From: a virus | Lineage: Duplodnaviria > Caudoviricetes | Length of the DNA: 64,000 nt | Direction: 5' to 3' (one strand) | Virus record (IMG/VR): IMGVR_UViG_3300037067_019009 | Span: 64,001 to 128,000 of that record | Shown: positions 16,217-63,250 of the stretch, piece after piece | How positions within the stretch are numbered: position 1 is the stretch's first letter | Layout: every line of letters starts with the position of its first letter | Position numbers and translations under genes: made by a program | The notes under the pieces: generated by a model | What the model was told of the DNA's origin: nothing | What the model saw: only the letters and a program-made list of their open reading frames with translations | Database searches by the model: none

Positions 16217-18310
16217 TCATTTTACCACACCCTCAGTTACACTTTTAATTACAGATATGCATCTATTCAAATTGTCTTTAAGCGTAGCATCCGCGCTAAT
16301 CAACCCATCCTCAACTGTACCCATCTCTTTCTGCCAGCTGGAGTAGGTGGCGTAACACTTCCTATAAATATCAGCGAGACGCTGGCAGTTATTACATGTA
16401 CAGCCTGTGACCTTAGTATCAAATACTTCCGGCATTTCCTTCAGAGTCTTCTTAGCCAATAGTGACCGCAGTTGTAAACACAGAGTCTCAGCTACACCTT
16501 CTCCAGTCCTCTCAGTAACCAGTATAGCCGTAGGACTCATTGGGGTATTGCCACAGCCTTCGCATGTAAGATCACCACAGTGGTACAACTTACGAGTATT
16601 AAGTAACTTAGTAACACACTCAGACATATTGCAGAATAGAGAATTTTTAGATAGGGCAGCCACCCCTCCGACCCTTTCCTCATGGGTTATGCCAGTAAAC
16701 TGCGCCCAATCTTCAGACACTCCTAACTTGTGACACAGTGCCATCCTCATCGCTATCGTTTGGGCCGGAGTGAAACCCACAACCCGCTCGTCACTATCCC
16801 TCGAAGACTGAGGACAGTACGCTAGGCCTGTATACAAGTCCATAGACGTTATGCGCCCTATGGGTTTTGGTATCTTCTCCATATCTACGACGATCTGTTT
16901 ATGCGAGGGTTTGTTGCCCGCAATCTGCAGCTCTGGATATGAAGTGTTGCCGGAACATATTAGATAACCACTGACTCCAAAATCTATGCTGTTCCTGATT
17001 GCACTTATTATACTACCAGCGTATCCGGTGTCAATTACAACAGCTCCTCTTGGAACCTCTAACCTCCACCATTTCCTCACTGCCGTATCGGTTACCCCAG
17101 AACTGCTGCACACGTTCCTGGATACTAAGAAATATCTAACATCCAACCCCTCTTCCTTAAGCCTCCAGAATACAGGCTCCGCGTCGCGACCGAGTATAAC
17201 GGTCGGTCTGCCTTTAGCGGCTCTAGAAACAGCATCTGCAGCTCTTGCAGTTATGTCAGCGGTGGAAGAAAGATCGATACCGCTATCTTTGGTGATCATA
17301 TAGATGAAAGACATCGTATCTGCTGCTCCAGATGAGCACATATTATAGTCTTTCCTCATCTTCTGGCGGTTTTTCTTTATAGACTCTGCCTGAAGCGCCT
17401 TAATCTTTTCAGCAAGCTCCGTCATTCCAGAGCGGACTGCCGCGGATAGAGTGCCTTCGGTCACCTTAGCTCCAGCCGACAATAGTTGCATCGCCAAATC
17501 GCCTTGCCCACTATTCATAGCACAGGCTAAAAGTGGCTGATTCGATTTACTTGCATCGGCACCGGCATCTAGCAGCAGTTTAGCTTTATCGAAGTAGCCC
17601 TGAATTACTGCTATATCTAAAATAGTTTTCCCGCCTGAATCGGTGGAATCTATAATATCTTTGCTGGCGTTACTTAGGAACTTCTTAAACACTCCCATCT
17701 GCTGGTTCAGCGAAATCCGTAGAAGCGTAGTATTGTTGACCTTAGTACCAGGAGACACTCCGTGCGTGATAGCATAATCCCAAATTTGTGCATCAGTTGT
17801 GAGACTAAGAAAATGATATCCATGTTTACTGATACCATCCACATTTTCCCCAGCCTCTACGGAAGCCGCCACTATACCAAGCGTCAACAAGCATACGGAG
17901 TTAAGCATTTCCCACCAGCAGTAGGCGCCTTTGTACACCCCATTTGGGCTGAATGCTGGTGACCCTATGATAGTAAGTAGGGCCGCTTCCCTGACTTTCA
18001 ATGAGATGTTAAGGTCCGGCGAGCAGACAGCCGTAGCCAGATCCCAAGTATTGTCATCCGGCCCGCGCATATAATAGGGGCCACCATCTTTAAGGAGCTT
18101 GGATAGTAAATTTGGCCGGTTAGCAACTACAGCAGCGCCTGCCAGAGTGTCGGCGTTATACAAAACCTGACTCGTATCATCTACCCCGACCCAATCCTCA
18201 CTGGAAATGAGTTGGCCTTTCCTTATCTTCCAGTAAAGCTCATAAGCAGGAGGCTTAATCTCCCCTACCCAAAAGCACTCAGGATCATACATCCCTGAAC
18301 CCTCCAACAA
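16217..18310 (-). CDS. Ankyrin-repeat protein with a C-terminal enzymatic-looking domain and Cys cluster
   Basis: GKTILDIAVIQGYFDKAKLLLDAGAD-type ankyrin repeats; ILGRDA and VIDTGYAGSI motifs; C-terminal HCGDLTCEGC/CTCNNC. Confidence 0.7.
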   Translation of the reverse strand: MLEGSGMYDPECFWVGEIKPPAYELYWKIRKGQLISSEDWVGVDDTSQVLYNADTLAGAAVVANRPNLLSKLLKDGGPYYMRGPDDNTWDLATAVCSPDLNISLKVREAALLTIIGSPAFSPNGVYKGAYCWWEMLNSVCLLTLGIVAASVEAGENVDGISKHGYHFLSLTTDAQIWDYAITHGVSPGTKVNNTTLLRISLNQQMGVFKKFLSNASKDIIDSTDSGGKTILDIAVIQGYFDKAKLLLDAGADASKSNQPLLACAMNSGQGDLAMQLLSAGAKVTEGTLSAAVRSGMTELAEKIKALQAESIKKNRQKMRKDYNMCSSGAADTMSFIYMITKDSGIDLSSTADITARAADAVSRAAKGRPTVILGRDAEPVFWRLKEEGLDVRYFLVSRNVCSSSGVTDTAVRKWWRLEVPRGAVVIDTGYAGSIISAIRNSIDFGVSGYLICSGNTSYPELQIAGNKPSHKQIVVDMEKIPKPIGRITSMDLYTGLAYCPQSSRDSDERVVGFTPAQTIAMRMALCHKLGVSEDWAQFTGITHEERVGGVAALSKNSLFCNMSECVTKLLNTRKLYHCGDLTCEGCGNTPMSPTAILVTERTGEGVAETLCLQLRSLLAKKTLKEMPEVFDTKVTGCTCNNCQRLADIYRKCYATYSSWQKEMGTVEDGLISADATLKDNLNRCISVIKSVTEGVVK

Positions 18311-21900: not shown

Positions 21901-22122
21901 TCACTTCTTCGCGACGACAGCGAGCTTAAGCACACTGCCTATACAGCCGATAAGCCAAAAACCGGCGTAAGTTACCCAATAGGTAATCTCCTTACCACCA
22001 AAATAAGGAATAACCACATTCCATAAAAACATGATGACCCCAGATATGAGAAACCCCCAGACGATAGCCGCCACCAGCAGGCCTGCTATTGCTCCTACGA
22101 TAGCACTAATACTTCTTTTTAT
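21901..22122 (-). CDS. Small membrane protein (73 aa) with apparent ATA start
   Basis: Open hydrophobic frame IKRSISAIVGAIAGLLVAAIVWGFL...; GGAGGTG RBS; ATA overlaps the upstream TAA. Confidence 0.5.
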   Translation of the reverse strand: MKRSISAIVGAIAGLLVAAIVWGFLISGVIMFLWNVVIPYFGGKEITYWVTYAGFWLIGCIGSVLKLAVVAKK

Positions 22123-22625
22123 TTGATCACCTCCCTCACCAGCGCAAATAAGGCCATAAAAATCACTACCATGAACGCAGATGGTTCCGGCGTTACATAT
22201 GTAACAGCTAACTGCATACTGGGACTAGCAGCCACGGAGTTTTTACCGTTATGTAACTGCCACCCCGGGCCCGCGCCGGTAATCATAGCTTCGTGCATCC
22301 ATAGGCCCGATACATAAACGTCCACTTGCCCCAATCCTACGAAGCAGATACTATTCCAGACATAGGAACGGTAGTCTAGTGGAGCTACATAATCGGCCAA
22401 ATAATATCCGACTGGCCCTGTAGAGCTATCCTTATATAGAGCTACATCCCACCCAGGCAATGCAGGTAGATCAGTGCAACTGTCATATCCATCGGTAGAA
22501 CATGGAAAGCTGCGAAGCAGCAGCGTTGATGATCTATAATTGAACTCAAAATACACATCGCTCCATGCGTCATGCATGCAAGAACCCAGTATTACCAAAA
22601 ATATCATTACGAACAGCGTCTTCAT
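22119..22625 (-). CDS. PEP-CTERM sorting-domain protein
   Basis: N-terminal signal peptide; C-terminal TPEPSA + transmembrane helix + basic tail. Confidence 0.8.
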   Translation of the reverse strand: MKTLFVMIFLVILGSCMHDAWSDVYFEFNYRSSTLLLRSFPCSTDGYDSCTDLPALPGWDVALYKDSSTGPVGYYLADYVAPLDYRSYVWNSICFVGLGQVDVYVSGLWMHEAMITGAGPGWQLHNGKNSVAASPSMQLAVTYVTPEPSAFMVVIFMALFALVREVIK

Positions 22626-22637
22626 ATATCTTAGCCC

Positions 22638-23618
22638 CTATGTATTATAGGCAAGCGAGCCTTTGTATTCTAATATAGATTTCCACGCGTACTTAGCGAC
22701 AGCCGCATTCGTAGCCTCATCGCCAATCTTCAGTTCTGGCGGTATCGGCCACTCGAAAAGGTCCTCCATAAGGATTTCCAATTCCTCACTGGGTTCCGAG
22801 GCTATCTGCCATATAAGCAGATCCATATTCATATAACTTTGCCCAAGGAAGACAAAGTCTTCTGGATTAGTCTTGAAATCCCACTTCACCACACTCTTAT
22901 TCTCTTTAGGCTTATCGGCTGCATGCTTAGTGTCTTTGCTACTCGTAGCCTCTGCAGTAGCAGTCTTTGCCGGAATTGAAGAAACGCCAGACTCAGCGTG
23001 ATAAGTAGAGTAATCTTTTACATTCTCATCGAAGGTCTTAGACATCATTGCCGTCACGCTGGGGGGCGTCTGCACATCGATGAACCAAGACACGTCTTCT
23101 ATCTTCACTCCAGCATCATAAAGGTAAATAGTTGATGACATCGCATTCGTCACCCTAGAGACTATAGAATGAATAAAGAGCGGACCGGTCTCGTCCGTAA
23201 ATATAGCCAGCATCTCCAGATCGTCTTTAGTAGGGGCAAGACTATGATCAGAGTGTATAGTCACCAGCATCTTGAGCATATCAGGCGTAGTGCCAGACGG
23301 AAGCTGCTTCATGAACGAGGATATATCCACATCCGATACTGAGGCACTCTGGTACTTCCTCGTTTGCGGAAATAGAAACAAATCTTTGACATATATATCC
23401 CCACCCACGACCTCTACTGACCCAAGCATACCAACAACACTCTTGGTCACAAGTTCAACAATAGCGTTCAGCTTGCCGTAAGCTAACGGAGACATATAAA
23501 TAACTGGAAGTTCGGTGAGCAGTTTCACCCTGGGCCCATAGCCAGACGGCAGTATAGAATTAGCTGGTTGAACCGGGGGCTCCTTCTCAGAACTATAAGA
23601 ATAACCACCATTCGACAT
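22638..23618 (-). CDS. JAB/MPN-domain paralog, probably catalytically inactive
   Basis: Aligns by eye with 28338..29192 (P.I...P.A..K..AIVEL), but HSD replaces HSH and the catalytic Glu position is Val. Confidence 0.7.
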   Translation of the reverse strand: MSNGGYSYSSEKEPPVQPANSILPSGYGPRVKLLTELPVIYMSPLAYGKLNAIVELVTKSVVGMLGSVEVVGGDIYVKDLFLFPQTRKYQSASVSDVDISSFMKQLPSGTTPDMLKMLVTIHSDHSLAPTKDDLEMLAIFTDETGPLFIHSIVSRVTNAMSSTIYLYDAGVKIEDVSWFIDVQTPPSVTAMMSKTFDENVKDYSTYHAESGVSSIPAKTATAEATSSKDTKHAADKPKENKSVVKWDFKTNPEDFVFLGQSYMNMDLLIWQIASEPSEELEILMEDLFEWPIPPELKIGDEATNAAVAKYAWKSILEYKGSLAYNT

Positions 23619-23623
23619 TTAAA

Positions 23624-24481
23624 TTACCTCACTACTAGAAGTTTTGGCTCCGGGCTGGTAGTATCCTTGGCCCTAGAGAACTCCTCCTCAAATAACTCAT
23701 AGTATTCTTTACGCAAATAGGAGAGTACGGCCTTCTTCACGGCATGTACTTTCGCCGTGGCCGTCTTCCCATCTATTTCCAACTCCGCCGCCACGTCAGA
23801 CGCACGGCAGTCCTGGCCCATGATAGCCGCCACTACTTGTAGTTCCTCTGGAAGGTGGCTGATAGCCTCATAAATCGCTGCCGCCTTAGCACGGTCGACA
23901 CAAATATCATGGATATCCGGCCCCTCCTCTATGGGCTGTTGGGCGCTCGACTTGGTTTGTATCTGGTCCGGAGTGGCTAACGTAAGTGCGGAGTACTTCA
24001 CGGCAAACTCATCCGTGGCCATACCCATATAACCGGCCAGCTCAGCACAGGTAGGTGGTCTTCCGAGCCTCTGATGTAGTATAGCCGCCGTACCAGCGAT
24101 ATCAGCCTCCATCTTTTTCGCCATCCCCTGGCGGCGCTTCCCAAGCAGCCCCCAGAACTCAGAACGCCGCTGCCCGATAGCTCTCCGCAGCACGCCTATG
24201 ACGAAGTTTTTAGCACTGGAGTACTTGTTGGAAGGCAGAGTGTCTACCGCTTTCGATAGTGTTGCCACCGCCGCCTGCGTTAGATCCTTACGCGTTATAT
24301 CATGCGCAGCCACTACAGCAGCCCGCTGGATGGATACTTCTATATAAGGAGCAGCCTCCTCTAAGAACTTGAGCTTGCTGGCGCGTGCTGTTTCGATGTC
24401 TCCCGAATCCCTTGCGCATATGAAAGCTTCTAGTGCATTATCCAACTTACCACCCAACTCATTACTACCTAACTTAGACAT
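23624..24481 (-). CDS. Sigma-70 family factor, degenerate
   Basis: Region 2 DLTQAAVATLSKAV, region 3 LHQRLGRPPTCAELA, region 4 AISHLPEELQ...DVAAELEI; start set at MSKLG. Confidence 0.8.
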   Translation of the reverse strand: MSKLGSNELGGKLDNALEAFICARDSGDIETARASKLKFLEEAAPYIEVSIQRAAVVAAHDITRKDLTQAAVATLSKAVDTLPSNKYSSAKNFVIGVLRRAIGQRRSEFWGLLGKRRQGMAKKMEADIAGTAAILHQRLGRPPTCAELAGYMGMATDEFAVKYSALTLATPDQIQTKSSAQQPIEEGPDIHDICVDRAKAAAIYEAISHLPEELQVVAAIMGQDCRASDVAAELEIDGKTATAKVHAVKKAVLSYLRKEYYELFEEEFSRAKDTTSPEPKLLVVR

Positions 24482-24754
24482 CGCGTAACTCCTTGACCAC
24501 AATGGGTTTCCTGCGTGCAGCCAACGCCGCGGCGTATAGCTTACTAGAACCTGATCTACCGGAGTGAACAAAAACATCAGCGGAAGCTTCCGTAAGTTCT
24601 ATAACCCCAATCTCCTGATCCAGTTCTTCGAGTTGTCTCTCTTCAAGTTCAGTAAGATCTTCAAAAGCTGTCCCCATAATCCCTCCGTCCTAAGTGGGCG
24701 GGGGCTAAGAGTCTAGCCCCCACTATCAGTAGATTAAAAATCTACTCAACACCC

Positions 24755-36854: not shown

Positions 36855-38519
36855 CTACTGTTTCATTGATAATTTATACAGTCTATTAGCCTGAATGGCC
36901 ATCAACGTATTACCATCGGCTACCAGTTGCATATCGGCGGAAAACGCCGGGTCTGAAAATCTTCTAGTTCCTGTGCTTCCCTTCCTCGAAGAGAATAGCA
37001 CAATGTCGGTTCCTTCTACCATCACTACAGCCACTCCGCTATCGAGTACAGCCATACTTATTCCAGTATAAGTTATATCCTCATGCTTTATAATGTCATA
37101 AGAGGAGTAGTCATTGGAAAACCGGAATATGAACATATCATATACGGATTGTTTTTCTCCAACCACAGCCAGAACTCCACGCTCGAACTTGGCATCAACT
37201 ACCTTATAGCCCTTCAGTTCAGGTATCTTGACATTATAGGTACATCCGGCCTTGGGTAAAATCGTAGCGAACCACATGCCCAAAGCATCTTGCATAGCCA
37301 CTCCATCAAACATAGTAGTAGACTTAGATGTCACGTTAGCAACCATCGTAGCCGCTGGGAATACACTTGGGTACAACTCCTTAAGTTCAATATGGAGTAG
37401 CTTATTACCCTGCTTAACATACACATCACCTCCGTAGCTGAACATATCATCCACATCAAGAATCATGGGTATTTCTCTCGGAGAATCGATGCCTGCCATT
37501 TTCAGCATGTCCTGCTTCCATACAGCCACACGCTTACCGGAGGTTGTCCTGGCTATATGGAAATCCCCGCCCCCAAACACCCTCTTTGCTCCACTATAAG
37601 TACCAGTCGAGGTGATGGCCAAACCACACCTATAGCTTATTATATTAGAGCTATACTCATGCACCAGCTCCATATTAATAAGCCCTGCGGTTACTATAGG
37701 CTTGCTTACAATCGTGGTAAATACGATAGCCTCTATGCCCTCCGGAGGAGGAATACGTTCTCCCCCTTCCAACACCCGCAGGTACCACTGAAAATACCCG
37801 GAAGGTATTACGTCAAATGGTTGACATACTGGCGGAACAGACACATCTTTGTTAAGGACCGATAGATTGGCCAGCATCCTTTCGTCTAAGCCACTTACTC
37901 TCGGATGGCTGCCTTTATAAGGATGTATCCCAGTGAACATCTGAAAGGATACTATCGCAAAAGAAAACCAATCGGTTCCTTCGTTGAATACACCTGGCTT
38001 AGAGTGCCTATCTCGCACACTCTCCATGAGCACAGGAGCCGCGTAATGTGGACACCCGTAAGAATCTACATCTATGAAATAAATGGTATCGAATTTTGAG
38101 CTGACAAGAAAGTTCATCTCATTTAAATCTACAAGGAGTATACTGCAGTCATGAATGCCTTGCACTCCGGTACGCTTGCGATGTACTAGTTTGTTAATTA
38201 TCTCCGGGGTGATACCATGCTTAGTCCTGAAAACTGCAGGAAACAATTTGCAGAGCGGGTAAGAATCCTTGATGTACCGCATAGTGTAGCCGATTGGCTC
38301 ACCACTGCCGCTGAGCAGAATATCTTCCGGCTTGATAACATCCGGGTTAGTAATCCTGGAAAGCTCCCTGATCTTGCCAACAGGAATCATCTTGCTTGGA
38401 TCATGATAGATTTTGTAAGCTTCAAACCCACGGACATATATCGAGCCTTCCCCACCAGTTGCAATAAAGTCATTCTGCGTTAGTGTGACTTTACTTTTAC
38501 CCTGCACGTATACATCCAT
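36855..38519 (-). CDS. Ser/Thr protein kinase with beta-rich C-terminus
   Basis: GGEGSIY, AYKIY, VDLNEMNFLV, IDVDS, DWFSFA. Confidence 0.9.
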   Translation of the reverse strand: MDVYVQGKSKVTLTQNDFIATGGEGSIYVRGFEAYKIYHDPSKMIPVGKIRELSRITNPDVIKPEDILLSGSGEPIGYTMRYIKDSYPLCKLFPAVFRTKHGITPEIINKLVHRKRTGVQGIHDCSILLVDLNEMNFLVSSKFDTIYFIDVDSYGCPHYAAPVLMESVRDRHSKPGVFNEGTDWFSFAIVSFQMFTGIHPYKGSHPRVSGLDERMLANLSVLNKDVSVPPVCQPFDVIPSGYFQWYLRVLEGGERIPPPEGIEAIVFTTIVSKPIVTAGLINMELVHEYSSNIISYRCGLAITSTGTYSGAKRVFGGGDFHIARTTSGKRVAVWKQDMLKMAGIDSPREIPMILDVDDMFSYGGDVYVKQGNKLLHIELKELYPSVFPAATMVANVTSKSTTMFDGVAMQDALGMWFATILPKAGCTYNVKIPELKGYKVVDAKFERGVLAVVGEKQSVYDMFIFRFSNDYSSYDIIKHEDITYTGISMAVLDSGVAVVMVEGTDIVLFSSRKGSTGTRRFSDPAFSADMQLVADGNTLMAIQANRLYKLSMKQ

Positions 38520-56063: not shown

Positions 56064-58076
56064 TTAGAAGATCATACCTCTTAGCTCTTCCAATTCCTTC
56101 ACTACTTTATCTGGCGTTTGCCGAGTCTCCTCGGCACAGGATACCATCCCCTCTGCGTTCATCACACAGGTATCGATATACCCGATCCTGCGACCAGATG
56201 CCTTCATCCTGTTCGGGTCGGATAGTCGCTTTCCTATCTGGCCAACGATACCGCCCACCACATCCGGATCCTGCCGATGCCTGCCTACCCGTAGGTAGCC
56301 TGCTGGGAATCTCCCGAGAGCTTTGGCCTTAGGGCCTTCGTACCTTGTCCCCAACTCCGTCTTCAGGGAAACGTCTCTGTGCCAGGCATTCGACTCCAAG
56401 ATCTCACAAGTCAGGGTATCGTCCGAGTACCCATACTCCTGAGCTACGTTGACGATATCGGACTCTTTCAGTGGGGCATTGTGGTTGACCACCATTCCAC
56501 CGAGATCCTTGGCTATTTTATTCAGAGCCAGTGTTAATCCTATTAGCTTTAGGCTGCCATGCTTCTTAGCTGATGTAATATCGAACACCACATCAGCCTG
56601 CTGTATAGAGCCATCGCTCCACTTAACCCACGGCATTGCGTTATCCGGGAGTATGTTTGCCACTCCCTTGAACGCGTCTGCCTCTGACTGAAGTTTCATT
56701 CCGGTCGCCGGAAGTATCTCCTCTTTCCCGGCAAACTCCCGGTAGAGAATCTCCTCACCGACTGGCCGTGGAATTACCAACCTCTCTATCTCAGCCGACT
56801 CGTACCTATGAGAAGGTATTTGAGCCGGTATCACGGGCCAGGACTTAGATCTCGCAAGCCATCCAGTAAACCTCCGGTACCCATTGCTGCTTGCTGGACC
56901 ATACTTTAGATCCCATTCTATCTCGCTGGCTCCAGTGGCCATTGCCGCCTTTTTGCGGGCATTCAGATTCGAGGCCGAGGCTGCTAGCCACTCTTTCCAC
57001 AACCTTATTCTCGCTGCGGTCTTTTCATCCACTCTCGCCTTCACAAAGATGGATTCCTTAGGAGATCTCACCTGTAAAGACACTTCGTCGCCATCTCTGA
57101 CCATCCTGCTATTTCTGCCGCATGAGTGGATCCCTCCGCGGCAGTTCACTAGTCCATCTATGCCATGAGTATGTATAACCTCATGCTCAACTGTCAGTCT
57201 CTTGGCAGCTGACTCTGAGACGATTACTGAGTCATTCAAGACTCCCACAGGATTCCCTTCCGAGTCTATCCAGCTCATGCCGACGCAGATCAGATTTACC
57301 ATATCCGGATAGATATGGTTTCCTTCTACCTTCACCAGAGGCTCCTCCGCCCCAACGATCTTTCTCAGATGGGTCAGCCCTCTAGCTGTTTTCCATCTGG
57401 TTGGATTCAGTAGCCAAGCCAGTGGCTGAACCGAGACGTATATCGGATATCCGTATTCATCTACACAATCAGCAGACGTACCCGGATTGCCCGGCTGTGT
57501 CGCGCATAGTTTCGAGACGCTATTGTTCTCGAGGAACTGGAGGAATATCTTCCTCTGTGCTAGTAACACATCGTTCCTCATCACCCCGGGGATGAATGGG
57601 ACTTCAGTCTTGCTGTCCAAGATGATGGTCCTTCTCTGTGCCTCGGTCTCGAAGCGCGTCTCGACCTCATCCCAGGCTCCCTCCTCGGTATACATCTCCG
57701 AGAGGGTTCTATTCGCCAAAGCAGACAGTGCTCTAGCTCCTATCTCAGCCGGAAGCCTAACTATTCTTCCCAGTTCGGCTGGAGAATCTCTCTTTATTCG
57801 GAACATGAGATAATCTTCCAACGTTCCGAAGGCTCTTACAAGCGGATTAAAAATCTCTCCGGACTCATCTGGGACGAAAGTAACTGATACTGCCGGCCTG
57901 AATACCGGTGTAGACCCGGTCGGAAGTAGTATTCGCTCACCTATCACTGGGAGCTTGGTGACAATATCTCCCAGCATAGCGAACATCGACTCTCCCTCTC
58001 TTACGACTAACAACTCTTCCGACTTCTTAAACGAAGTCTCACTTGCGCCTGTTACACGTGTAATTACCTCATTCAT
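56064..58076 (-). CDS. RNA polymerase beta-like DPBB subunit, highly divergent
   Basis: LNDSVIVSES (cf. FEDSILVS); GMKLQSEADAFKGVANILPDNAMPW..SDG..ADVVF (cf. GDKMAGRHGNKGV...DMP...G.PVDIVL). Confidence 0.8.
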   Translation of the reverse strand: MNEVITRVTGASETSFKKSEELLVVREGESMFAMLGDIVTKLPVIGERILLPTGSTPVFRPAVSVTFVPDESGEIFNPLVRAFGTLEDYLMFRIKRDSPAELGRIVRLPAEIGARALSALANRTLSEMYTEEGAWDEVETRFETEAQRRTIILDSKTEVPFIPGVMRNDVLLAQRKIFLQFLENNSVSKLCATQPGNPGTSADCVDEYGYPIYVSVQPLAWLLNPTRWKTARGLTHLRKIVGAEEPLVKVEGNHIYPDMVNLICVGMSWIDSEGNPVGVLNDSVIVSESAAKRLTVEHEVIHTHGIDGLVNCRGGIHSCGRNSRMVRDGDEVSLQVRSPKESIFVKARVDEKTAARIRLWKEWLAASASNLNARKKAAMATGASEIEWDLKYGPASSNGYRRFTGWLARSKSWPVIPAQIPSHRYESAEIERLVIPRPVGEEILYREFAGKEEILPATGMKLQSEADAFKGVANILPDNAMPWVKWSDGSIQQADVVFDITSAKKHGSLKLIGLTLALNKIAKDLGGMVVNHNAPLKESDIVNVAQEYGYSDDTLTCEILESNAWHRDVSLKTELGTRYEGPKAKALGRFPAGYLRVGRHRQDPDVVGGIVGQIGKRLSDPNRMKASGRRIGYIDTCVMNAEGMVSCAEETRQTPDKVVKELEELRGMIF

Positions 58077-58080
58077 CCTA

Positions 58081-59451
58081 TCAACCCTCGCTAGCTATAA
58101 GTGTATTTTGAAACCACTCGGCCATAGTGGTTTCTTCCGGCACAGACTGCATGAATTCCCAAACCGGCGGGTTCATGCTATTTCCATGTAGAATTGCGAA
58201 CGCTAGATTATGGTTCGCTTTCTCTCTTATATCACCTCCCTCGAGTATCTCATACATCGCTCTAAAAGTCGCTGTATCCAGCCCCTGTTTAGACAGGCTG
58301 GACTCCACCTTTTCCCAGGAATATCCCGGGAGACCTCTGAGGAGTCCATACAACCCTCTTGGGTCAGACTGGTTATTGTGCTTTTTATCAAAGCACAGCT
58401 CAATCGCGGCCGTCATCGCCGATGACCATGATTGATAGTCGATGGGACAGTTCTCTATCATATCTATGACTGCGAACCCAGCATAGTATATGAGTGAGAG
58501 ATTCGAGATCCATAATTTCTGCTCTATGGCGTCTACCACCGAGCTCAGCGGATCGACTTGAAGGTCCTCATGATCTTTCCACGTCATGGCCTGCGGCGTA
58601 ACCGCCATGGGTTGTAAGTTACCCATGGCAACTATCTTATGCCAAGCCAATTCCGACTTGGCTTCCCTGCTCCTTGGAATTATTATTGAGGGGGTATCTC
58701 CATCACAGTCCCCCTCCACGAGATCCATCTGGCTCATTACCCTGTCCCCCATCTTGAATATAGATGGTGAGACGAAGATCACAAAGTCCTGGCCCGGAAC
58801 TTCCCGCACGGTGCATGACTTCGCTCCAGTAGTGGGCCATCTGGAGAATATACCATAATCTCCATCTCCCACTATATTTCTTCTCTTTATAGTGGAAGTT
58901 CTTCCATGCTCATCCACGAAGGTTATGGACTTTTTATTATTCATACGATCCATTACCTTAGTGGAGAGCCCGATCTCTCCCGGCTTAAGAGCAGAGAAAT
59001 CTCCACTCTTGAACCTGCCGTATTTAAAAGAGGAGTGGTTTATGTGTGGGATGGCCACTAGAGCTCCCGACACCGTAACCCTCAACCGGCCAACCTTCTC
59101 CTGCAGCGACTTGGCCACGGCAGCCTTATAAGCAGCCAGGAACCTCTTCATCCCGCGCTCAACAACCGTACGGTTGTTACTATGTACCCCTCGTACCACT
59201 TCATTCAGGGAGATTAGGATGGGAGTCAGAATTATATTCCCGCTGGAGTCTCTGCTAGCCCCCATCTTGATAGAAGGAGGAAGAACGATATGGTCTATCT
59301 TGTGGCCACCAGGAAAAACGCCACCCAGATCATAATCAAACTCCAAAGGAATACAAGTAGTAGTCTGGAAGGACTCTATAATGGTGTCCTTCAATGGAAA
59401 ACTCCGGCTGACCAAACCGGTTCCATCAAACAGTTCCAAAGGTCTTAACAT
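58081..59451 (-). CDS. RNA polymerase beta'-like catalytic DPBB subunit, highly divergent
   Basis: RVTVSGALV...LKPGEIGLS, SRWPT (RxP), EGDCDGDTPSIIIPRSREAKSEL (cf. NADFDGDQMAVHVPL..EA). Confidence 0.85.
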   Translation of the reverse strand: MLRPLELFDGTGLVSRSFPLKDTIIESFQTTTCIPLEFDYDLGGVFPGGHKIDHIVLPPSIKMGASRDSSGNIILTPILISLNEVVRGVHSNNRTVVERGMKRFLAAYKAAVAKSLQEKVGRLRVTVSGALVAIPHINHSSFKYGRFKSGDFSALKPGEIGLSTKVMDRMNNKKSITFVDEHGRTSTIKRRNIVGDGDYGIFSRWPTTGAKSCTVREVPGQDFVIFVSPSIFKMGDRVMSQMDLVEGDCDGDTPSIIIPRSREAKSELAWHKIVAMGNLQPMAVTPQAMTWKDHEDLQVDPLSSVVDAIEQKLWISNLSLIYYAGFAVIDMIENCPIDYQSWSSAMTAAIELCFDKKHNNQSDPRGLYGLLRGLPGYSWEKVESSLSKQGLDTATFRAMYEILEGGDIREKANHNLAFAILHGNSMNPPVWEFMQSVPEETTMAEWFQNTLIASEG

Positions 59452-60089
59452 GTCACACCTCGCTATAGTGATTTGGAATCGGAACCAATTTACATAGGCA
59501 CTACCTCCGCAACCCTACACCTATGAAGTCTTATTGTACCACATATCACTTGGTTACAGCTGCCACATTATTATCGCTAACCATCGATCTCACTTTCCTC
59601 TCTATAGGGCATGACCATAACCACCCTCAGACCAAGCCGACGCAGTATCTTACGAAGCTCTGCTATGCTATCCGCCTCAATAGGATGAGACCCATCATGA
59701 ACATGCAAATGAGTGTCAATGGTAAATGGCCGCCACTTACCATGACGATCTTCCTTAATATAGACGCTGACCTTACAACCAAAAGGACGTGTATCATATA
59801 CATCAACCATATGTATAACCTCGCTCCCTATCTTCTGCCATCGTTGGCTCAAAGAAACGCGTGTTGAGATTATCGGTAATAAGGTCATGATCTTCGAACG
59901 CGGCCTCCATGTCTTTCCACACGCCAAGCGTCTCAAGATACACATCGAGTTCGGCCACAGGTACGGAATCATCCCCAGTCAGCACCTCACCTATAGTGTG
60001 AGTGTTGAATCTACTGGATTCCACCTCCACCCCAGTCTCCTTATATTTGAGTTTCATCTCATATCCTTTCAGGAAATCTAATCCTTCAG

Positions 60090-61484: not shown

Positions 61485-62207
61485 TTAGGACTTTTTGCCT
61501 CCAGACTTGACCGTCTCCTTGGCGGTAGGCTTCTCGGTCGTCTCTCCCACCGCGGCGGGAGCAGTTGTCTTACTTTCTTCCGCCGTTCCAGCTTCAGTCG
61601 GAGCCTGATACGGCGTGTACGTTAGGCCGAGCCCTTCGTGGTCTATCGGCAGAGCGTAGGCGAAGTGTTCAGACGCCATCTTAGCCATAGAGCCCATTGA
61701 CAGACTCGCGATTGCTCGCGGGCCCGCTGCTCTCCTGACCACCGTGACTGTTTCCTGCGTGACCGGGTCTTTACGGTCCTCCGTCCACTCAGGCCACTCA
61801 GAGGTAGCTTTTACCCACCGCTCTCCTCCGGCATCGATGCGCTGCCCAGCCACTGAGGCGCCTCCCCCAGCTAGGAGAGTGATCCCATAGAAGGTGCCGA
61901 TCATCGGGAGTTGTATCGTTACTGATGCCGATCTTACTTCCCCATCATCGGCGGTGTTAACGTTGTAGAAGAGCTGTCCGAACACCTCCGCGTACATCTC
62001 CGTTCCGTCCACGTCCACCCGCATCAGGTGCTCTGGCCGAATGTTTTCCGGGGAATCCAGAAGAACTCTCTTGCCTTCCGAATCCCGCCTGCACATCTCC
62101 GCGTAGTGCGTAGACCTTTTTACAAGCCCTGCTTCAAACGCGGTGAGGCCGCTCCTTTTTAGCGACCCTTCCTCTGGCGCTACCGTCGTAGTTTTAATCT
62201 GTTGCAT
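61485..62207 (-). CDS. Hypothetical protein with low-complexity C-terminus
   Basis: 240-aa GC-rich ORF, AAGGA RBS. Confidence 0.75.
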   Translation of the reverse strand: MQQIKTTTVAPEEGSLKRSGLTAFEAGLVKRSTHYAEMCRRDSEGKRVLLDSPENIRPEHLMRVDVDGTEMYAEVFGQLFYNVNTADDGEVRSASVTIQLPMIGTFYGITLLAGGGASVAGQRIDAGGERWVKATSEWPEWTEDRKDPVTQETVTVVRRAAGPRAIASLSMGSMAKMASEHFAYALPIDHEGLGLTYTPYQAPTEAGTAEESKTTAPAAVGETTEKPTAKETVKSGGKKS

Positions 62208-62428: not shown

Positions 62429-63250
62429 CTATCTCAAGTTACCTCTTATCTCTGAAGGCAGGAGATTATAGATAAGTCTCCTATGACAATTTACACCCTC
62501 GCTTTCCCAACAAAGTAAGACCAGGTGATTAGTATTCAGTTCCTTAGCGGCCTTTGTTACTAAATCACCAAGCTTCTCGGATAGGTTCCTTCCTGGAATC
62601 CCGGATAACTTTCCTTCAAGCTCAGCTTTGTATCTAACGGCATAGGCTTCCCAAGAGATACTAGCAGTTTTATAATCTGCAAGCAAGCACCTACTAGGGG
62701 TAAGCAGATGTATTGTTTTTCCAACGAAATCCGCCGGGCTAGACCTTGCTATAGATACACCAACAGCACCATCGGGAACTTTCATTTTGAAGCTGGCTGT
62801 GCTTACCAGCAACGCTCCACTGCCTCCTTTCATTGCAGCATAAGCAGCCATATCCACCTGTTCGTTACCTTTAATCCCAGAGTGGCCAGGAACCCACCGC
62901 CACTCTATGTCTACACCACTCGACCGAACCTTAGCGGCGTAATCGGAAGTGTAAACATTCTTTGCTCTCCATTCTCCCCTAACCCACTTTGACAAGCCTT
63001 CATAGTCGTGGTATAGTGTTACATATGTAACACCTAGTGCCACTAACCTGTCGAGGGCTCTCATCACGGCTGTGCACTCACCAGCCACATTACGCTGTGA
63101 TTTGAAGCCCTCCTCAACATCATTCCCGTGAGCAGATACAACTCTCGTGTCGGGGAACACTATCTTGTACGCCCAACCGACATCAATAACATTGTCATGG
63201 GTATGCGCACTGCCATCCACGTAGACTTCAACTACGCTTTCCATAAACAT
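62429..63250 (-). CDS. Ribonuclease HI fused to a DUF488-like domain
   Basis: VYVDGS, RNVAGE, HDYEG, WVPGHSG..GNEQVD; C-terminal SIARSSP...LLCWE...CHR. Confidence 0.88.
   Translation of the reverse strand: MFMESVVEVYVDGSAHTHDNVIDVGWAYKIVFPDTRVVSAHGNDVEEGFKSQRNVAGECTAVMRALDRLVALGVTYVTLYHDYEGLSKWVRGEWRAKNVYTSDYAAKVRSSGVDIEWRWVPGHSGIKGNEQVDMAAYAAMKGGSGALLVSTASFKMKVPDGAVGVSIARSSPADFVGKTIHLLTPSRCLLADYKTASISWEAYAVRYKAELEGKLSGIPGRNLSEKLGDLVTKAAKELNTNHLVLLCWESEGVNCHRRLIYNLLPSEIRGNLR

Follow-up and report, generated by a model that had tools for sequence, protein, structure and literature searches.

The locus described here raises the question of whether two adjacent genes of an uncultured phage encode an RNA polymerase (RNAP) of the cellular, multisubunit (beta/beta') type. 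Both genes are within a window of 64,000 nucleotides, bases 64001-128000 of IMG/VR virus record IMGVR_UViG_3300037067_019009; the record is 212,668 bp long (a phage of ~213 kb), with a CheckV completeness of ~84%. All positions are those of the window unless the record or another sequence is named. The evidence supports placing the pair in a rare and drastically reduced family within the two-barrel RNA polymerases, of the cellular type and with both split and fused forms. We consider it likely that the two proteins form the catalytic core of a very reduced, non-virion, DNA-dependent RNA polymerase.

The two genes and their junction

A first-pass annotation, made from the letters of the window alone, had noted two open reading frames (ORFs) of 456 and 670 aa, 4 nt apart. 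Both ORFs and the spacer are present where it had placed them, and together the two chains amount to 1,126 aa (50.6 + 74.2 kDa).

58081-59451, minus strand: gene of the beta'-like subunit, 456 aa, 50.6 kDa; N-terminal region, switch-2-like stretch, predicted Mg-binding double-psi barrel and C-terminal helical domain
56064-58076, minus strand: gene of the beta-like subunit, 670 aa, 74.2 kDa; beta/Rpb2 in compact, unsplit form
58077-58089, minus strand: gene junction GAGGG-TTGA-tagg-ATG, with Shine-Dalgarno GAGGG at 58089-58085, stop codon TGA at 58083-58081 and the 4-nt spacer at 58080-58077

The Shine-Dalgarno sequence of the beta-like gene is placed within the 3' end of the beta'-like gene, which has a ribosome-binding site of its own (GAGGTG), and this layout suggests translational coupling of the two genes. 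An independent contig from a landfill metagenome (2018) spans 57431-58441, including the junction, with 0 differences and 0 gaps. Since it reproduces the junction identically, the split into two genes is not a frameshift introduced in assembly.

Eight residues are invariant in all the two-barrel polymerases listed by Ruprich-Robert & Thuriaux (PMC2919709), and all eight are present here: R204, P206, D248, D250 and D252 in the 456-aa protein, D282, K461 and K470 in the 670-aa protein. The pair thus has two marks of the superfamily, a barrel with a DxDxD triad and an upstream Arg and Pro, and a second barrel with an Asp and two basic residues. The ordered motifs listed in the first-pass annotation were all located, namely SGALV, LKPGEIGL, RWP, GDCDGD and P..REA in the 456-aa protein, and LNDSVIVS, GMKLQSEADAFKGV, MPWVKWSDGSIQQADVV and H600 in RVGRHRQ in the 670-aa protein. 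They are not chance matches, because they are invariant or nearly so in homologues of only 18-49% identity.

The beta-like subunit

57216-57239, minus strand: LNDSVIVS (residues 280-287) with D282, the fourth invariant carboxylate, equivalent to Rpb2 D837 and E. coli beta D814
56796-57134, minus strand: helical insertion in the beta barrel (residues ~315-427), family-specific, mostly helical and partly disordered
56661-56702, minus strand: GMKLQSEADAFKGV (residues 459-472) with K461 and K470, predicted catalytic or nucleotide-binding lysines (compare GDKxxxRHGNKGV)
56271-56291, minus strand: RVGRHRQ (residues 596-602), conserved strand late in the protein, including H600 and Q602

The AlphaFold2 model of the 670-aa protein has a mean local confidence (pLDDT) of 78 and a predicted template modelling score (pTM) of 0.70. 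Foldseek returned at least 440 matches to it at E<=1e-3, with a top E of 8.5e-13, and the best 50 are all second-largest subunits of RNA polymerases (50/50). Model residues ~257-604 align with the DPBB (double-psi beta-barrel) domains and the hybrid-binding region of beta/Rpb2, so the beta/Rpb2 architecture is shared beyond the barrel. In the structural alignments cellular beta is followed from residue ~15, whereas the beta-C chains of AR9 and phiKZ cover only residues 205-615; the 670-aa protein is thus an unsplit beta, though a compact one.

At the sequence level the closest known polymerase is that of phage AR9. The top PDB match of the beta-like profile is chain 7s00_C of the AR9 non-virion RNAP, and when whole reference phage genomes were searched with the same profile the only gene detected was AR9 beta (E 7e-4). 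With the alignment of 29 sequences, hhalign matched AR9 beta at a probability of 95.7% (E 1e-8) over 56 columns, across the two-lysine loop, where the GMKLQSEADAFKGV stretch aligns to GSKITGRYGNKGV of AR9 beta. K461 and K470 are retained in every beta-type sequence that covers them. D282, aligned to AR9 LEDAIVISESAAKKL, is invariant in the four closest homologues and retained in most of the 29; it is preceded by Asn in place of the Glu found before the invariant Asp in cellular enzymes. The RVGRHRQ strand is likewise invariant in the four closest homologues, and most of the 29 retain H600 and Q602.

The place of the helical insertion corresponds approximately to that of the flap insert in cellular beta; the insertion is without the SBHM fold in the model, where residues 351-409 are helical and pLDDT is low at 315-349 and 414-424. 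It is missing from the fused relatives described below (positions 284 to 426 of beta profile A2 are skipped) and is shortened in representative P0008.

The beta'-like subunit

59053-59091, minus strand: switch-2-like motif GRLRVTVSGALVA (residues 121-133), directly ahead of the barrel
58606-59085, minus strand: double-psi beta-barrel (residues ~123-282)
58834-58842, minus strand: R204-W-P206, with the Arg and Pro that are invariant in the beta'/Rpb1 barrel (equivalent to Rpb1 R446/P448)
58696-58713, minus strand: G247-D-C-D-G-D252, the catalytic Asp triad and predicted Mg2+ site, assigned from conservation and hhalign register
58099-58551, minus strand: C-terminal helical domain (residues 301-451), with a 31-residue helix (301-331) and ELCFDKKHN (351-359)

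The model of the 456-aa protein has a pLDDT of 75. Foldseek gave 357 matches at E<=1e-3, and the best 50 listed are all RNAP largest subunits (50/50). In the alignment-free ESM Atlas comparison the protein adjoins phage clusters (329-473 aa) with PF00623 present in 71-97% of their members. The first-pass annotation had read the pair as double-psi-barrel RNA polymerase subunits, beta' followed by beta; the structural matches of both single-chain models, among those listed entirely to largest and second-largest subunits respectively, agree with the conserved catalytic residues in bearing this out.

Across 14 split and fused sequences R204, P206, D248 and D250 are retained without exception, and D252 in 13 of 14. 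hhalign places GDCDGD in register with DNDGD of YonO and GDYDG of AR9. The alignment of beta' with AR9 gp270 is weak (E 0.06) and in the correct register, NRNPT against SRWPT and GDYDG against GDCDG. In the AR9 genome the beta' profile A1 has no match. The first-pass annotation had regarded the Cys of the DxDGD motif as distinctive. Within the family the first two aspartates are separated by C, N, L, F or T, so that Cys is an ordinary variant, and its reading as a mark of special chemistry was rejected.

The GRLR...SGALVA stretch before the barrel, a candidate equivalent of switch 2 by eye against a bacterial beta' sequence and PMC2919709, resembles that element in sequence. G121, R122, R124, S128 and G129 are invariant among the four split homologues, and S128 is kept in 13 of the 14 split and fused sequences. 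Switch 2 is tied to DNA-templated enzymes (PMC2919709); a funnel motif, also typical of them, was not recognised here. In the C-terminal domain Q311-K312 of the 31-residue helix are invariant in 14/14 sequences, as is K357, and the helix may be the equivalent of the bridge helix; loose structural alignments of this domain (those covering model residues 123..456) reach C-terminal regions of Rpb1.

Family and distribution

Neither protein, nor the fused relatives, matched Pfam, PHROGs or NCBIfam. Against PDB sequences phmmer gave nothing meaningful with either protein, and the beta' profile A1 gave nothing. No match to the locus, to representative P0005 or to the fused P0020 was found by blastn and tblastn among 50,697 GenBank phages, and a pattern scan of IMG/VR using the beta' alignment found no relatives. 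A search of 5.8 billion clustered proteins yielded three relatives for each of the two proteins, to which a second word-index search with profile A1 added none. The exhaustive HMMER search with the beta-like profile gave 29 representatives in 1.84 billion proteins. All ten members that were looked up come from metagenomes and have either no name or the label 'hypothetical', as the first-pass annotation had guessed, and its suggestion of a distinct lineage is borne out by this small separate family of 29 representatives, which no curated model recognises as such. One relative is in NCBI (MHB1455589.1, from an Armatimonadota metagenome-assembled genome), and the distant relative P0033 is the only family member to pass Pfam RNA_pol_Rpb2_6 (PF00562), with E 5e-15.

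Split and fused forms

Ten of the representatives are single chains of 930-1045 aa. The beta' profile matches them at ~150-440 and the beta profile at ~480-990, DxDGD stands at 206-269, and they contain these two modules only. By BLAST, both window proteins map to one single ORF in contig L015. Because such relatives join both parts in a single chain, in the same order, the two window proteins are taken to act as one enzyme. Further split pairs occur in L011 (541 + 597 aa, 4 nt apart, 203-kb contig) and L014 (458 + 698 aa, 18 nt apart). The split forms are found on contigs of up to 203-226 kb, and the fused forms on contigs that resemble phages or mobile elements and carry SSB, SNF2 helicase, HTH and PD-(D/E)xK genes.

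In an unrooted maximum-likelihood tree of the beta parts, in which the outliers P0033, P0026 and P0023 have very long branches, the ten fused forms lie on one side of a branch with support 99/95. Since this branch is well supported, one fusion or fission event suffices to account for the two states.

The order of the halves is beta' then beta throughout the family, in genes and in fusions. In QDE-1, phi14:2 gp66 and P23-45 gp64 and gp96 the beta-like barrel comes first, followed by a connector and the beta'-like barrel (10.1101/2022.12.01.518664), and Orf6 of the yeast plasmid is an Rpb2::Rpb1 fusion (PMC2919709). YonO is also beta-like first, with DNDGD at 533-537 of 839 residues. Judged from where the motifs and profiles fall, the fused relatives reverse the half order of the described single-chain enzymes examined (YonO, QDE-1, crAss gp66 and P23-45). 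No description of a single-chain polymerase with the beta'-then-beta order was found in the literature searched.

Proposed function and alternative explanations

In the proposed enzyme the 456-aa protein would supply the barrel with the Mg2+-binding D248, D250 and D252, together with R204, P206 and the switch-2-like stretch, and the 670-aa protein would supply D282 and the lysines K461 and K470. By homology with all two-barrel polymerases the two barrels are expected to pack face to face, with the Asp triad facing D282 and the lysines across the interface. The assembled chains would polymerise RNA on a DNA template. The enzyme would be made after infection and would transcribe phage genes of the middle and/or late class, like YonO and the non-virion polymerases of phiKZ and AR9. 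A non-virion, middle or late role is proposed because the genes sit in a minus-strand replication and nucleotide-metabolism block, away from the plus-strand structural block.

Several points weigh against this proposal. The beta' assignment has no significant sequence match of its own, the best being that to AR9 gp270 (E 0.06), with none in Pfam. No homologue of the bridge helix or trigger loop was recognised by sequence, and hhalign of the beta' alignment A3 against the AR9 beta'-C subunit gave nothing. The barrel interface is a prediction from homology and single-chain models. With ~84% completeness, the record could lack further subunits or a virion polymerase. Finally, host RNAP with a phage sigma factor could drive the late genes, being an equally good reader of the candidate late promoter described in the next section.

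Searches of the genome for other polymerases bear on several of these points. No paralogue of either protein was found, and PF04997, PF00562, PF00623 and PF04998 had no match, a weak negative since known proteins also escape such models. The T7-type model PF00940 was also without a match, which is uninformative as it is silent in all 14 reference genomes too. The giant plus-strand ORFs (2101, 1821, 2306 and 1624 aa) have PHROGs nuclease or endolysin/peptidase matches or none, and show no match to a polymerase family. By paralogue and Pfam RNAP searches, of low sensitivity and on an incomplete record, no other polymerase was detected.

It is unlikely, in our estimate, that the pair is only part of a multi-piece polymerase in the style of phiKZ and AR9, with a divergent beta'-C (carrying the bridge helix and trigger loop) and a specificity subunit like AR9 gp226 or phiKZ gp68 encoded elsewhere. 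AR9 beta is the best sequence match, the ESM Atlas neighbours of the 456-aa protein are phage clusters of beta'-N type (329-473 aa), and the alignment of AR9 beta'-N (7s00_d) is confined to model residues 2-286; the C-terminal domain beyond has no bridge-helix homology, and the unrecovered part of the record leaves room for more genes. However, the fused relatives of 930-1045 aa hold only two modules, and the 670-aa protein includes the N-terminal beta region, unlike the beta-C of AR9 and phiKZ. PF04998 detects the beta'-C of both AR9 and phiKZ and none here, which with the lack of paralogues counts as a weak negative, as known proteins escape Pfam. The stronger claim, that among polymerases of the cellular beta/beta' lineage this one is the smallest to be self-sufficient, is a tentative one that we would rather doubt than assert. 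Under it ~930-1,130 residues, as two chains or one beta'-to-beta chain, would transcribe phage genes in a promoter-specific way and need neither alpha, omega nor sigma, nor a separate beta'-C or a specificity subunit.

The remaining explanations concern the kind of enzyme or its use. A role in replication, in which a two-barrel polymerase makes primers or origin R-loops or copies RNA templates together with the neighbouring RNase H, seems to us improbable. An RNase H gene lies upstream in four loci, and adjacent to the fused gene in L015, the polymerase genes are within a replication and nucleotide-metabolism block, and a phage sigma factor could handle expression via the host enzyme. The fold, however, is of the transcription beta/beta' type, the switch-2-like motif is linked to DNA-templated transcription (PMC2919709), polymerases of the PolD type and of the RNA-dependent (RdRP) type are not among the close structural matches, and RNase H is so common in phage replication modules that its adjacency may be incidental. 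That the genes are a YonO-like or QDE-1-like polymerase (the RNA-interference-type clade) split in two is very improbable, although such enzymes are reported in group-3 jumbo phages, for example 0305phi8-36, and in c-st (Iyer et al. 2021), the Glu before D282 is missing as in YonO and RdRP-type enzymes (PMC2919709), and relatives carry DNDGD as YonO does. With A3 the hhalign comparison with YonO covers only the 18 residues of the metal motif, at a probability of 0.14%, and with A4 it gives nothing for beta (0.08%). Profile similarity beyond that motif is absent, so a YonO-like placement is not supported; moreover, neither profile matches the SPbeta or 0305phi8-36 genomes, and the half order is reversed, beta' being first here and the beta-like half first in YonO. 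Hardly credible at all is the idea of inactive relics or chance ORFs with polymerase-like motifs. No curated family recognises the proteins, as one might expect of such ORFs, yet conservation across 14-29 sequences, at 18-49% identity, extends to all catalytic residues, the predicted structures are specific as well as confident, each gene has a ribosome-binding site, and identical DNA was recovered in two independent studies. The reading as the core of a reduced transcribing polymerase is therefore retained as the likely one.

Genome context, sigma-like factor and candidate promoters

A minus-strand block of ~100 kb holds the polymerase genes along with those for DNA polymerase A, helicases, NrdD and GroEL, as well as tRNAs and numerous small ORFs; the plus strand encodes terminase, portal, sheath and the giant tail proteins. 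Two neighbours upstream have counterparts at related loci.

62429-63250, minus strand: RNase H-DUF488 (N3a) fusion gene (Pfam RNase_H E 1e-11, DUF488-N3a E 5e-10)
61485-62207, minus strand: 240-aa protein with no assigned function (BLASTP to L014 5321-5935, 28% identity, E 3e-7)

The RNase H-DUF488 gene, or one half of it, is upstream of the polymerase in 4/4 loci examined, the homologues being at L014 4289-5098 (45% identity), L015 4090-4527 (34%, directly before the fused gene) and L011 2945-3400 (30.5%). The 240-aa protein has no Pfam or NCBIfam match; that it is an accessory factor would be speculation.

A 317-aa ORF (23624-24577, minus strand) looks like a divergent sigma70-family factor. 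It matches the SigB/F/G subfamily at E 3.4e-6 (residues 95-290), Sigma70_r3 at E 1.3e-3 and Sigma70_r2 at E 0.02, all below the curated cut-offs. Sigma factors have been described in jumbo phages without an RNAP and none in the phiKZ group (Iyer et al. 2021), and the occurrence of a phage's own sigma factor with its own polymerase is unusual. Two further minus-strand ORFs may be mentioned, one of 554 aa (36855-38519) with a weak protein-kinase domain match (E 3e-4, below cut-off) and one of 697 aa (16217-18310) with ankyrin repeats (E 1e-6).

A candidate late-promoter motif, ACTTGCCTATAATA(tA..GTG), which contains TATAAT, lies upstream of genes in the plus-strand structural block.

Record 16796-16809, 17499-17512, 135728-135741, 182168-182181 and 199752-199765, plus strand: perfect intergenic copies of ACTTGCCTATAATA, 4-61 nt before genes, outside the window
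Window 22643-22656, minus strand: copy with 1 mismatch, 17 nt upstream of the ORF at 22119-22625

Nine sites occur at <=2 mismatches against 1.7 in shuffled sequences, and no conserved -35 element was found near them. The motif could be the promoter of the two-gene polymerase. Because it contains TATAAT and the phage encodes a sigma-like factor, host RNAP with that factor is an equally good candidate to read it. Upstream of the polymerase genes themselves an extended -10-like sequence, TGgTACAAT, was seen by eye at 59533-59541 (minus strand), ~80 nt before the beta'-like start codon. This sequence is a possible promoter of host type for the operon; the consensus promoter scan did not report it, no -35 being present.

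Significance

No transcription enzymes other than the two-barrel RNA polymerases are universal, and their reduced versions (YonO, crAss gp66, P23-45 and AR9/phiKZ) have each revealed which parts are needed. To these the family adds a cellular-type core cut to ~40% of the length of bacterial beta plus beta', and its natural two-gene and one-chain states are suited to testing assembly. Were the enzyme self-sufficient, it would mean that the two barrels can be linked covalently in either order, which bears on the assembly of the ancestral two-barrel enzyme. The compact single-chain forms would, if active, be of interest as small orthogonal transcription systems. Screens with Pfam, PHROGs, NCBIfam or COG-style models do not see the family, and for this reason surveys of phage polymerases miss it and these phages of ~200 kb are wrongly scored as polymerase-free.

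Comparison with known polymerases

Bacterial beta and beta' are much longer, ~2,750 aa together in E. coli. Compared to cellular RpoC/Rpb1 and RpoB/Rpb2, the phage core is ~1/3 to ~40% of the size, and its order is beta' then beta rather than beta then beta'. It is without the Zn-binding motifs, the SBHM flap (a helical insert is found instead) and a recognisable trigger loop, and no Pfam RNAP model matches it. The mReC phage RNAPs (Weinheimer & Aylward 2020, PMC7481178) are likewise from metagenomic Caudoviricetes with beta and beta' homologues; they were defined by matches to COG0085/COG0086 hidden Markov models at E<=1e-5 and are easily aligned to cellular enzymes, whereas the proteins described here match no cellular RNAP model.

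The non-virion RNAPs of AR9 and phiKZ (PDB 7s00, 7ogp; PMC7598289, PMC5449584) consist of four core pieces (beta-N, beta-C, beta'-N and beta'-C) and a fifth subunit. They are encoded at dispersed sites, in two sets in the phiKZ-type phages, whereas here there is a single set of two adjacent genes. The present enzyme also differs in that beta is unsplit, no beta'-C was detected (a search of low sensitivity) and fused single-chain relatives exist. In the phiKZ genome neither profile finds a match, and there is no PHROG match. A sigma-like factor is encoded here and is reported absent from the group-1 jumbo phages (Iyer et al. 2021). In AR9 itself the beta'-N gene gp270 (L027, KU878088 225343-227520) is interrupted by an intron with the HNH homing endonuclease gp271, the break being directly after GDYDG of the catalytic motif. 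Another phage protein, BFVD A0A172Q0S6 (798 aa, 'uncharacterized protein') of Acinetobacter phage vB_AbaM_ME3, resembles the beta-like model (Foldseek E 2.7e-10, TMq 0.37); the family profiles and PF00623 find nothing in the ME3 genome. From this structural match, the cultured 235-kb phage ME3 may carry another unannotated divergent polymerase.

The BFVD structural matches also include LEF-8-type proteins of nudiviruses and baculoviruses. The partner protein LEF-9 has the motif NTDCDGD, with DCDGD as here. The pair LEF-9/LEF-8 is of alike design, a beta'-like protein of ~500 aa and a larger beta-like one with little beyond the two barrels, switch 2 and funnel (PMC2919709). No sequence relationship of LEF-8 or LEF-9 to the window proteins was detected; their enzyme is that of an insect virus, likely of eukaryotic ancestry, and has two more subunits (LEF-4 and p47).

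YonO of SPbeta, gp66 of phi14:2 (a crAss-like phage), gp64 and gp96 of P23-45 and QDE-1 are also small polymerases, of phage or RNA-interference type, with two double-psi barrels. YonO transcribes the late genes of its phage (PMC5467207), and the fused relatives of the present pair, at 930-1045 aa, are similar in size to these single-chain enzymes.

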